This document shows, piece by piece, positions 7,872-9,408 of a stretch of DNA of 34,254 nt. A program made the translations under genes and the position numbers. Position 1 is the first letter of the stretch. Every line of letters begins with the position of its first letter. Location: the IMG/VR virus record IMGVR_UViG_2529292908_000011. One strand, 5' to 3'. The notes under the pieces were generated by a model. It saw only the letters and a list, made by a program, of their open reading frames with translations, was not told the DNA's origin and searched no databases. Origin of the DNA: a virus. Lineage: Duplodnaviria; Heunggongvirae; Uroviricota; Caudoviricetes.

Positions 7872-7885
7872 AAACTTCCACCCAT

Positions 7886-7908
7886 AAAAAAGGGGCGCAA
7901 TGCGCCCC
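7886..7908 (-). terminator. intrinsic terminator between the porin moron and L
   Basis: Minus-strand hairpin GGGGCGC-att-GCGCCCC followed by TTTTTTAT (plus-strand A-run 7886-7891). Confidence 0.55.
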
Positions 7909-8069
7909 GAACAAAAAAGTTCAATTAAAAATCGAAAGCAATGAAGGTAATAAAATGAAAATTAAATCGGCTAATTGCCGTTTGCAGTGACCGGTGAAAA
8001 CTATACTTTCACCGATACAGACCATCTGTGAGGGCAGATGGTCTGTATTTGTTCACTCACCAGTTATCA

Positions 8070-9206
8070 TCAGAACTGATAAGTCATACCAACGGCAACG
8101 ATATTATCCGTTGCAACACCTGCATCCTGGGTAAACTGACTTTCATCAATCAGATTGATTTTATAATCAACATAGGTGGACATATTTTTATTAAAATAAT
8201 ATGTTGTACCCACATCAATATATTTAACCAGATCCTGATTGCCATAGTTTTTACCACCGACAATTATATCCTGAGCACGAGACTGCAGGAACGCCAGAGA
8301 TGGACGCAAACCGAAATCAAACTGATACTGTAATACCGCTTCAAAGTTCTGGGCTTTATCTGCCACCCCTTTGTCGCCAAAGGTCGTCATATTCTGAGTC
8401 TCAGAATATATTGTCGCCAGATAAATGTTGTTGGCATCATATTTAAGCCCGGTGCCCCACATCTCAGCGTGTTTACCTTTTGCAACACTGCCGGAATCAA
8501 CAACTGTTTGAGTACCGTTTACTGTTTGCGTACCATTCAGGCCTTTCACCTGATTGTTGGTACGGTCTGCGTTAGTATATGCAGCCACGATACCAAAACC
8601 TTCATATTCATAACTGGCAGAGAAACCATAACCATCACCATTAGCTTCCTGAAGGTCATCACGTTCATTCTTGCCCTGATACTGAGCTGCAAAATTCAGG
8701 CCATCAACAAGTCCAAAGAAATCAGTATTACGGTAAGTCGCCACACCAGAAGTACGGGCAGTCATGAAGTTATCGGTCTGGGTCCAGCCATCACCACCAA
8801 ACTCTGGTAATACGTCGGTATAAGCACCAACATCATACGCAATACCATAGTTACGACCATAATCAATGCTGCCAAAGTCACCGAACTTCAGACCTGCAAA
8901 CGCCAGACGAGTCTTATTACCCGCAGCACCGTCTGATTCAGTTTTATTACCAGAGAACTGATATTCCCACTGACCAAAACCGGTCAGTTGATCATTAATC
9001 TGAGTTTCACCTTTAAAGCCCAGACGTGCATATGTCCGATCACCATCATTTCCCTTATCGCTGGAGAAATAATGCAGTGCCGTTACACGTCCATACAGAT
9101 CAAGCTTATTGCTATCTTTGTTATATACTTCCGCAGCCTGCGCACCAGCTGCAAAAATCACAGCCGCAGCCACGGCTGAAAGTGCCACTGTCATTTTTTT
9201 CATCAT
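8070..9206 (-). CDS. outer membrane general porin (OmpC/OmpF/NmpC family), moron inside the tail operon
   Basis: 378-aa ORF with signal peptide [24 protein letters not shown], then [15 protein letters not shown]...LPEFGGD...[23 protein letters not shown]...[10 protein letters not shown]...[17 protein letters not shown]...YQF. AT-rich 200-bp upstream region 9207-9408 and its own terminator. Confidence 0.9.
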
Positions 9207-9408
9207 TTGTTCCTTATTTTAATTGAACTATTCATGAATTGGGCTGTCATGAACGCCAGTTAAAATATTTTACTACAAATTCTGAATTCAATTCATTAAA
9301 TGCAACAAAATGTAAACAAGAGACAAGTTTCACACTTTCTGTTAAGACGACAAAAAATAATTTTGCATGAAACAATAAAGATTAATTTATAATACAATTC
9401 TTGGAAAT

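Follow-up and report, generated by a model that had tools for sequence, protein, structure and literature searches.

The sequence considered here is IMG/VR virus record IMGVR_UViG_2529292908_000011, a stretch of 34,254 nucleotides (below, the window) from a defective lambda-like prophage of Escherichia coli. Between the minor tail protein genes M and L it contains an open reading frame (ORF) encoding a porin, at 8070-9206, within an insert of about 1.5 kb that has a low GC (guanine plus cytosine) content. The whole cassette, from the start of L to the stop codon of M, occupies positions 7872-9408 of the minus strand, as do all features below unless stated otherwise. It probably is a porin-replacement cassette of the lysogenic conversion type, a diverged and relocated relative of the nmpC-ipeX and lc-ipeX units of the prophage DLP12 and the phage PA-2. 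An intact porin gene is followed by a structured 3' untranslated region (3'UTR), whose single-stranded part is predicted to pair with the translation start regions of the host ompC and ompF mRNAs. That the promoter is active, that OmpR controls it, that the 3'UTR is processed, that OmpC and OmpF are repressed and that any phenotype results are predictions made from sequence comparison.

The porin gene is complete and has a signal peptide, in agreement with the first-pass annotation of this DNA, which was made from the letters alone and had described an OmpC/NmpC-type porin. The product of 378 amino acids (377 from the second ATG) belongs to the NmpC/Lc/OmpD-like branch of the OmpC/OmpF/PhoE family. 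It matches the Porin_1 profile (PF00267) from position 1 to 337 of 337 with E=2.8e-142 (474.6 bits, the cut-off being 23.7). The matches to chains with solved structures (OmpK37, OmpC, PhoE and OmpF) have E-values of about 1e-130 to 1e-116, with OmpK37 (6v78) being the best. Residues 1-24 (9135-9206) form the signal peptide ending in AQA, since the first residue of the mature chains falls on residue 25. The mature N-terminus AE(V/I)YNKD, the motif PEFGGD of the constriction loop L3 (residues 134-139, 8790-8807, assigned by reading the sequence and by alignment with OmpK37 and OmpC) and the C-terminal aromatic residue (the protein ends in YQF) are all present. Because solved porins are matched at about 1e-130, the product is expected to fold into a 16-strand trimeric beta-barrel diffusion pore. 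An AlphaFold2 model based on an alignment of 20 sequences had a predicted local distance difference test score (pLDDT) of 33 and was discarded; the loops were assigned by sequence alignment.

A protein search retrieved a clade of alleles of 360-387 amino acids with 80-97% identity, which differ mostly by insertions and deletions in two surface loops. Loop L5 (8472-8564, numbered from the strand alternation and the alignment with OmpC) is hypervariable, with insertions and deletions of 0 to about 28 residues among alleles; in the window it contains an 18-bp tandem duplication (8503-8537) that produces NGTQTV twice. Loop L6 (8358-8393) is variable, with insertions of 0-8 residues in other alleles. 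Beyond the clade the identity falls from at least 80% to about 72%. The alignment against nmpC- and ompD-type alleles, proposed at first pass as a check, gives 71-72% amino acid identity with the phage porins NmpC and Lc, the same level as with chromosomal OmpD of Salmonella and Citrobacter porins (67-71%). The Citrobacter porins annotated as OmpC, Salmonella OmpD and OmpK37/OmpN have the same architecture. However, they are chromosomal core or accessory genes outside prophages, whereas the cassette porin is phage-borne, and the extension of L5 is a feature of the cassette clade that sets it apart from them. With respect to NmpC and Lc the cassette porins form a separate clade with long, hypervariable L5 and L6.

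The ratio of nonsynonymous to synonymous substitution rates (dN/dS) between alleles is 0.06-0.17, with dS ranging from 0.3 to 1.3. Judging from these values, outside L5 and L6 the gene is under strong purifying selection and the alleles are old (dS about 1). Since the gene is under purifying selection and survives inside decayed prophages, this argues that the porin is used by the bacterium.

The porin stop codon is followed by a 3'UTR of 184 nt (7886-8069) that consists of three hairpins, a single-stranded stretch and a terminator. Its minimum free energy is -63.6 kcal/mol, compared with -36.2 +/- 4.1 for shuffled sequences (z=-6.7). An alignment of 13 distinct sequences was folded with RNAalifold, and the consensus contains hairpins at 8015-8048, 7992-8014 and 7965-7983, a single strand of about 57 nt, and the terminator. 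In this alignment 99.1% of cells are paired and nine pairs have changes on both sides. None of 500 shuffles reached the observed values, and when the partner columns were slid, at most four such pairs and about 40% pairing were obtained. The first hairpin is a perfect stem of 14 bp with four covarying pairs, the second has 10 bp in the consensus and also four covarying pairs, and the third has 7 bp and one covarying pair, with a 13-nt loop insertion in the v2 alleles. The intrinsic terminator GGGGCGCATTGCGCCCC plus T6 (stem-loop 7908-7892, ending at 7886) has seven G-C pairs and a loop of 3 nt and is invariant in all 13 sequences. Thus the downstream hairpin and the terminator at 7886-7908, both noted at first pass, are real; however, they are not simple punctuation of the gene, but parts of a conserved structured 3'UTR resembling ipeX and MicF.

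Upstream of the terminator lies the candidate seed AUUUAAUUUUCAUUUUAUUACCUUCA (7942-7967) with the invariant core UUAUUACCUU, which is unpaired both in the centroid and in the consensus structure. The non-coding flanks of the porin gene are better conserved than its silent positions. Between the major allele groups the 3'UTR is 67-82% identical and the 5' flank 69-77% identical, compared with 46-52% at 4-fold degenerate sites of the same cassettes. In the closest pair (the window and locus L002) the corresponding values are 85% for the 3'UTR, 68% for the 5' flank and 65% for the 4-fold degenerate sites. The 3'UTR probably carries half of the function of the cassette.

Castillo-Keller, Vuong and Misra reportedly described ipeX in 2006 as an untranslated stretch of about 250 nt, extending from the stop codon of nmpC or lc to the terminator, that lowers OmpC and OmpF. 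The cassette has the same trait, an untranslated stretch of 184 nt (8069-7886) from the porin stop codon to a Rho-independent terminator. Both DLP12 and PA-2 encode IpeX, a repressor of OmpC and OmpF (PMC5069750, PMC8065619). The relationship between the two was analysed with a covariance model, R1, built from the 13 3'UTR sequences. It produced full-length matches to the 3'UTRs of nmpC from DLP12, lc from PA-2 and all tested viral loci of the NmpC type, with scores of 34-35 bits; with the rough calibration of the model, this corresponds to E=9e-7 to 1.6e-6 in 131 kb, and to 6e-8 for DLP12 in 9.4 kb. The best match to unrelated sequence in the 131 kb scored 14.7 bits, and reverse-strand matches at the same 3'UTR loci scored 20-26 bits. 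The next match outside porin loci was K-12 micF itself, on its own strand (locus L014, 1641-1774; 14.6 bits, E=0.006 in 9.4 kb and 0.08 in 131 kb). The 3'UTR element is thus probably of the ipeX type, a distant homologue with a MicF-like seed. A pattern scan of species-representative genomes (GGTCACTGC-N26-48-TTATTACCTT) was also tried; its 33 hits, spread over unrelated taxa, were chance matches; four of them were re-tested with R1, which scored none, and these candidates were rejected.

The resemblance to nmpC-ipeX and lc-ipeX involves both parts of the cassette, a phage porin of the same branch and a long structured 3'UTR. The RNA elements share three hairpins, an AU-rich single strand with the motif UAUUACC(C)UUUAU (UAUUACCCUUUAU) and a GGGGGCG terminator. 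They differ in that the cassette seed is longer and matches the start region of ompC directly. The resemblance to MicF, the OmpR-activated antisense RNA of ompF, is in the seed. The core UUUAUUACCUUCAUU agrees with the MicF core UUUAUUACCGUCAUU in 14 of 15 positions (UUUAUUACC(U/G)UCAUU), and the predicted target, the Shine-Dalgarno box and AUG of ompF, is the same. In both cases an OmpR-type box is linked with a porin gene and an anti-porin RNA. On the other hand, MicF is encoded by a divergent stand-alone gene next to ompC, whereas the cassette element resides in a porin 3'UTR and has three additional hairpins. The ipeX-type elements and micF may share common ancestry or may have converged.

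Predicted pairing was calculated for the 31-nt seed against 45-nt windows around the start codons of K-12 genes; RNAduplex applied to whole UTRs produced meaningless long-range pairings and was replaced by this calculation. The seed of the window (v1) is predicted to form 23 bp with ompC at -13 to +12 (-21.5 kcal/mol) and 20 bp with ompF at -16 to +9 (-18.9 kcal/mol), and the v2 seed gives -23.0 and -15.4 kcal/mol respectively. For comparison, the positive control, MicF with ompF, gives -27.1 kcal/mol. MicF with ompC gives only -14.1 kcal/mol, whereas for the cassette the pairing is predicted to be at least as strong with ompC as with ompF. The start regions of the cassette porins themselves are not matched, with -8.7 kcal/mol for the v1 seed and the window porin and -7.1 kcal/mol for the v2 seed and the porin of locus L003. 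In the background of 6000 windows of E. coli and phage DNA the mean energy was -6.6 to -8.2 kcal/mol with a standard deviation of about 3, so that the ompC and ompF duplexes lie 4-5 standard deviations below it. About 0.1% of the windows beat the v1-ompC and v2-ompC duplexes, and these are probably antisense copies of the element itself. All 13 variants retain the predicted pairing (-19.4 to -23.0 kcal/mol with ompC, -17.8 to -21.4 kcal/mol with ompF). The target is also stable, as 5342 of 5426 genomes have the 70-mer around the ompC start with at least 99% identity.

The same calculation was applied to the single strand of ipeX (AACCUUCUGUUAUAU…UUACCCUUUAU; L016 2368-2537, L015 66-235). For the ompC 5'UTR an uninterrupted duplex of 15 bp is predicted, situated immediately before the start codon and covering the Shine-Dalgarno box (-20.6 kcal/mol, top 0.1% of the background), and -18.6 kcal/mol was obtained with the ompF start region. 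These predicted pairings are at odds with a review according to which IpeX does not base-pair (PMC3617542).

The region upstream of the porin gene was aligned for eight loci representing at least six alleles (205 nt). Conserved blocks follow in the order GTCTT..CA.AAAGTG; TTTACATTTTG(T/A)(T/A)(G/A)CA; AATTGAA; AAATATTTT; GTTCATGACA; CATGAATAGTTCA; and the Shine-Dalgarno box AAGGA. The second of them forms the candidate OmpR box TTTACATTTTGTTGCATTTA (9297-9316); TTTACATTTTG is retained in six of the eight loci and has substitutions in the other two. In the allele of 387 amino acids (locus L002) the box TTTACATTTTGAAACA coincides in 16 of 16 positions with the C1 site of K-12 ompC, whose sequence was taken from a published oligonucleotide (PMC2586830). 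The form found in locus L003 resembles the Yersinia pestis ompF site TTTACATTTTGTAACACATA, which has been footprinted (PMC3050692). No locus has more than one copy of the degenerate 16-mer pattern TTTACATTTTGWWRCA. It is found in 24 clade-A loci, always about 113 nt before the ATG, and once at ompC C1, with no further occurrence in the 97 loci scanned. About 5 nt downstream of the box lies a candidate weak promoter, TTGAAT-N18-TATTTT (9262-9291), which agrees with the consensus in 8 of 12 positions. In the putative -35 box TTGAA is invariant in all eight loci, the last base being T or C, and TATTTT is present in seven. This arrangement suggests a weak, activator-dependent promoter with a single proximal predicted OmpR site. 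Some blocks, namely (T/C)TTACAT(T/C)TTG, ATTGA and AATAGTTCA, are held in common with the upstream regions of lc (PA-2) and nmpC.

One more conserved signal lies within the coding region. CAGUGGC in codons 6-8 (9184-9190) is complementary to the 5' end of RybB. All eight aligned loci have the stretch GACAGTGGCACT unchanged, whereas the identity of 4-fold degenerate sites between the major groups is only about 50% (65% in the closest pair). The nmpC mRNA is a reported target of RybB (PMC3333887). CAGUGGC is also present in lc, with synonymous sites near saturation.

The boundaries of the cassette were established by comparison with the uninterrupted phage vB_EcoS-569R3, in which M and L overlap (TGATG; …ATTGAGCAGGTGGTGAACTGATGCAG…). 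The junctions in the window are …ATTGAGCAGGT / AATCTCATAG … TTTTTTATGG / GTGGAAGTTTATGCAG…, and, according to this alignment and the GC profile, the DNA truly inserted spans approximately 7883-9418. M is thus interrupted by the insert within its final codons (GAGCAGGT / insert / GGTGGA..ATG of L). The insert enters at the third-last codon of M, so that the last three codons and the stop codon of M (9409-9750; PF05939, E=5e-29) are derived from the insert. Translational coupling of M and L is broken by the insert, and L (7173-7871; PF05100, E=1.1e-90) has kept its GGTGGA ribosome-binding site, which now follows the cassette terminator. The cassette edges in the window show neither repeats nor transposon ends, the only possible microhomology being GGT, present at both edges. 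PADLOC matched no defence-system family.

The GC content is 0.26-0.46 over 7900-9400, including the AT-rich upstream region noted at first pass, and 0.54-0.65 in the tail genes. Together with its own conserved upstream region, its own terminator and its absence from 187 related phage records with contiguous M and L, this anatomy supports the earlier description of the cassette as a self-contained moron. Like the classical lambdoid morons of the lom, bor and HK97 gp15 type, it is DNA of deviating base composition between normally adjacent genes, with its own terminator and presumably its own promoter, and its product is a cell-envelope protein presumably of use to the lysogen. Unlike them, it resides at the M/L junction, severing the translational coupling, and as cargo it combines a protein with a putative regulatory RNA.

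The cassette is absent from all 187 phage records that have this M-L region, the two halves of the query being 1163 bp apart in each of them. Porins in the phage collection are solely of the NmpC, OmpD and Lc types, with 69-71% nucleotide identity, and reside in the late region. In 5426 complete E. coli genomes this type of M-L junction occurs in 3030 (9167 places), and the full M-porin-L query was found in 51. A search with the insert alone at a threshold of at least 80% identity retrieved 76 genomes (about 1.4%), and in nearly all of them the porin ORF is intact. The cassette was also found in 30 viral contigs of IMG/VR, in a contig of Citrobacter farmeri and in a run assembly whose tail module (Z-U-V-G-T-H-M) is truly of the lambda type. 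The layout M, about 200 nt, porin, about 200 nt, L is common to all 43 loci examined, whereas nmpC and lc have Q on one side and the lysis genes on the other, with quuD/essD and Rz as neighbours. The M proteins of these loci are 44% to 99% identical to that of the window; two of them are of the lambda type (44-45%).

The location is therefore unusual, as had been suggested, in that known prophage porins lie elsewhere and none of the 187 phages has one here. However, it is not unique to this prophage. The first-pass annotation named a common M-porin-L arrangement in related prophages as evidence against its reading, and the arrangement proved to be rare among M-L junctions, although recurrent and conserved within the clade. 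Judging from the loci compared, the M/L junction is a rare but fixed and old home of one porin clade. We found no description of a porin at this junction in the literature, and the public annotation label of the gene is 'porin OmpC'. The 'extra porin' Ec042-2121 reported for strain 042 (PMC2808357) may, judging from its gene order, be yedS. A chromosomal island (L013, 5482-8063) with Rop, a Tle1-like effector of the type VI secretion system and IS66 encodes an intact porin allele of 373 amino acids, flanked by a 25-amino acid remnant of M and a tape-measure fragment on one side and a frameshifted L on the other. In locus L007 the terminator of the 3'UTR has been replaced by IS66. Loci L031 and L032 are mosaics, in which the upstream region and porin of the L002 type are joined to a 3'UTR of the L003 (v2) type, which demonstrates recombination within the cassette.

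Taken as a porin-replacement unit, the cassette would operate as follows. In the lysogen the weak promoter, probably dependent on OmpR bound at 9297-9316, would produce a monocistronic mRNA ending at the terminator 7886-7908. This mRNA would be translated into a classical 16-strand trimeric general porin with clade-specific, hypervariable L5 and L6. The 184-nt 3'UTR, either attached or cleaved off as a small RNA, would present the single-stranded seed (7942-7967), which would pair over the Shine-Dalgarno box and start codon of the host ompC and ompF mRNAs and decrease their translation, as MicF does on ompF. The start region of the cassette's own porin, not being matched by the seed, would escape. 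Host OmpC and OmpF would be partly swapped for the phage-specified pore. The swap would remove or change the receptors of OmpC- and OmpF-dependent phages and colicins and alter surface antigens, while solute uptake would be kept; the hypervariability of L5 and L6 is consistent with such a payoff. During lytic growth, late transcription modified by Q, which ignores terminators, would pass the cassette terminator, and the downstream genes L, K, I and J would still be made. The logic is that of the ompC-micF pair, with an OmpR box, a porin and an anti-porin RNA, and the proposed effect is similar to that of lysogeny by PA-2, in which the appearance of Lc is accompanied by a decrease in OmpC. Expression in the lysogen is supported indirectly by the strong purifying selection, by the survival of the porin inside decayed prophages and by a related NmpC moron, the expression of which in an LF82 lysogen is about 10-fold over background (PMC9928086).

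A stronger version of this model is more speculative, and we put it forward with rather less than even confidence. It holds that the cassette is a two-part device in which a trans-acting RNA from the 3'UTR silences both host porins by base pairing and spares the phage porin; that L5 and L6 are engaged in an arms race with phages, colicins and antibodies; and that ipeX-type elements in general are MicF-like antisense RNAs, possibly of common ancestry with micF.

The main competitor is a moron in which only the porin matters. Here the porin would be expressed in the lysogen, and the 3'UTR would act solely in cis, on mRNA stability, on termination or through closure of the 5' and 3' ends that tunes its own translation, with no effect on ompC and ompF. 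Indeed, a distal segment of the 3'UTR, AUUUUUAAUUGAACU (7918-7932), and a conserved block of the 5'UTR, AGTTCAATTAAAAT (AGUUCAAUUAAAAU; 9216-9229), are complementary and form an inverted repeat; the latter block closely precedes the Shine-Dalgarno box AAGGA. In the window the predicted duplex has -20.9 kcal/mol, compared with -12.5 +/- 2.8 for shuffled sequences (p about 0.004), and in 13 combinations of 5' and 3' ends the values range from -15.8 to -23.9 kcal/mol. One compensatory exchange of A-U to U-A and several G-U transitions occurred between alleles. This pairing might bring the mRNA ends together, hide the regulator or serve as feedback, and since the distal 3'UTR pairs with the cassette's own 5'UTR, the element could be mainly cis-acting. 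Stable hairpins immediately after the stop codon are, moreover, typical of mRNA stabilisers. Finally, IpeX is stated in a review to act without base pairing (PMC3617542), and therefore the analogy with ipeX alone does not support an antisense mechanism. However, the invariant seed is distinct from the cis-pairing segment and unpaired in the consensus, the pairing of 23 bp with ompC and 20 bp with ompF is kept in 13 of 13 variants despite the different v1 and v2 seeds, and the analogous ipeX region represses OmpC and OmpF experimentally (PMC5069750). We consider the purely cis-acting alternative rather unlikely, although it deserves to be taken seriously.

Several further observations weigh against porin replacement through a trans-acting RNA. 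The duplex energies ignore accessibility, and the background consists of the 6000 genomic and phage windows, not of a whole transcriptome. Both the seed and its targets are AU-rich and near Shine-Dalgarno boxes, so the apparent complementarity is inflated. BLAST found no similarity between the 3'UTR of the window and ipeX of DLP12 and PA-2, and pairwise local alignment of the 3'UTR with ipeX was only modestly significant (p about 0.006). In a narrow Rfam scan of 1.8 kb, MicF (RF00033) was the sole bacterial RNA family matched, and the sole match of any kind inside the 3'UTR, at 7883-7969, with a score of 26.6 bits (E=0.35), far under the gathering score of 79; in larger Rfam scans this match on the window disappeared. 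The weak match is explained by the 14 of 15 shared core positions and does not support membership in the MicF family. Among the Rfam families there is none for ipeX, and no match to the ipeX region itself was observed there. Lastly, no sigma-70 site reaching 9 of 12 consensus positions was found on the coding strand, although a match below this level is what is expected of an activator-dependent porin promoter.

The absence of a detectable strong autonomous promoter, together with the orientation of the cassette, which is that of the surrounding late tail operon, would also fit a function in the lytic cycle. In this case the cassette would be read mainly through the Q-antiterminated late operon and would remodel the envelope late in infection, preventing, for example, adsorption to debris or causing superinfection exclusion. 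But a conserved upstream footprint with an OmpR-type box makes little sense without a promoter of its own, the cassette has its own strong terminator, and the porin is intact and under purifying selection in prophages incompetent for tail assembly and in an island remnant. This makes a lytic role improbable. Least probable of all is that the cassette is silent or decaying cargo, an unexpressed and functionless hitch-hiking remnant. The window prophage is defective, as this would suggest. However, dN/dS of 0.06-0.17 over dS of about 1, an ORF intact in nearly all of about 76 genomes, non-coding flanks better conserved between major allele groups than synonymous sites, and an RNA structure with covarying pairs all speak against it. 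Replacement of the host porins thus remains the reading that we favour.

The prophage around the cassette is decayed. The order of genes in the minus-strand tail operon is V (11053-11904), G (10673-11047), a shortened tape-measure gene, M, the porin ORF, L, K, I (5841-6521; PF06805), two fragments of J, Lom and the side tail fibre; the product of K has NlpC/P60 and JAB domains. The first-pass annotation regarded the M-L-K-I-J block as otherwise lambda-like. M, L, K and I do flank the cassette on the same strand, and M and L are contiguous in 187 phage records, but the block is damaged. The tape-measure gene (9743-10642) has an internal deletion and encodes 299 amino acids instead of the expected 1080 or so, and J (4302-5497) is split into an N-terminal fragment of 231 amino acids and a C-terminal, receptor-binding one of 200 amino acids, which matches long-tailed Shiga toxin phages. 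The prophage is thus defective and incapable of tail building, whereas M, L, K, I, Lom and the porin cassette are intact in it. The gene for the Ail/Lom outer-membrane protein (3635-4234; PF06316, E=2e-127), located between J and the side tail fibre, is full-length, and so this defective prophage keeps two outer-membrane cargo genes.

Other junctions in the tail region also contain additional DNA. The spacer between I and J (5497-5840) is AT-rich and on its plus strand, antisense to the tail genes, has a near-consensus promoter TTCACA-16-TATAAT (11 of 12 positions; 5703-5730) and a terminator-like hairpin followed by T7 (5809-5825), delimiting a candidate RNA of about 95 nt (5703-5835) with no match to Rfam families. 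The promoter was seen with at most three mismatches in nine other loci, one of them a phage without the porin. The spacer measures between 240 and 910 bp in different loci, which suggests a second variable site for cargo. The prophage of strain LZHX12 (locus L001), which matches the window at 100% over the porin, M and L, has an additional insertion between L and K (17920-19944) with genes for an Arc-family repressor, a ClpP-like protease, a YlcI/YnfO protein and a degraded antirepressor of the P22AR type. The junctions of tail genes seem to be general cargo sites.

Phage-borne porins and ipeX have been known from a single lineage, located in the late regulatory region. The cassette represents a second, anciently diverged lineage at another site. 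As its complementarity to ompC and ompF can be read directly, the 20-year-old question of how lysogeny by porin-encoding phages shuts off host porins becomes testable. As an accessory determinant, the cassette is carried by about 1.4% of complete E. coli genomes, many Shiga toxin-producing strains among them, and it could alter receptors for phages and colicins, surface antigens and permeability to antibiotics.

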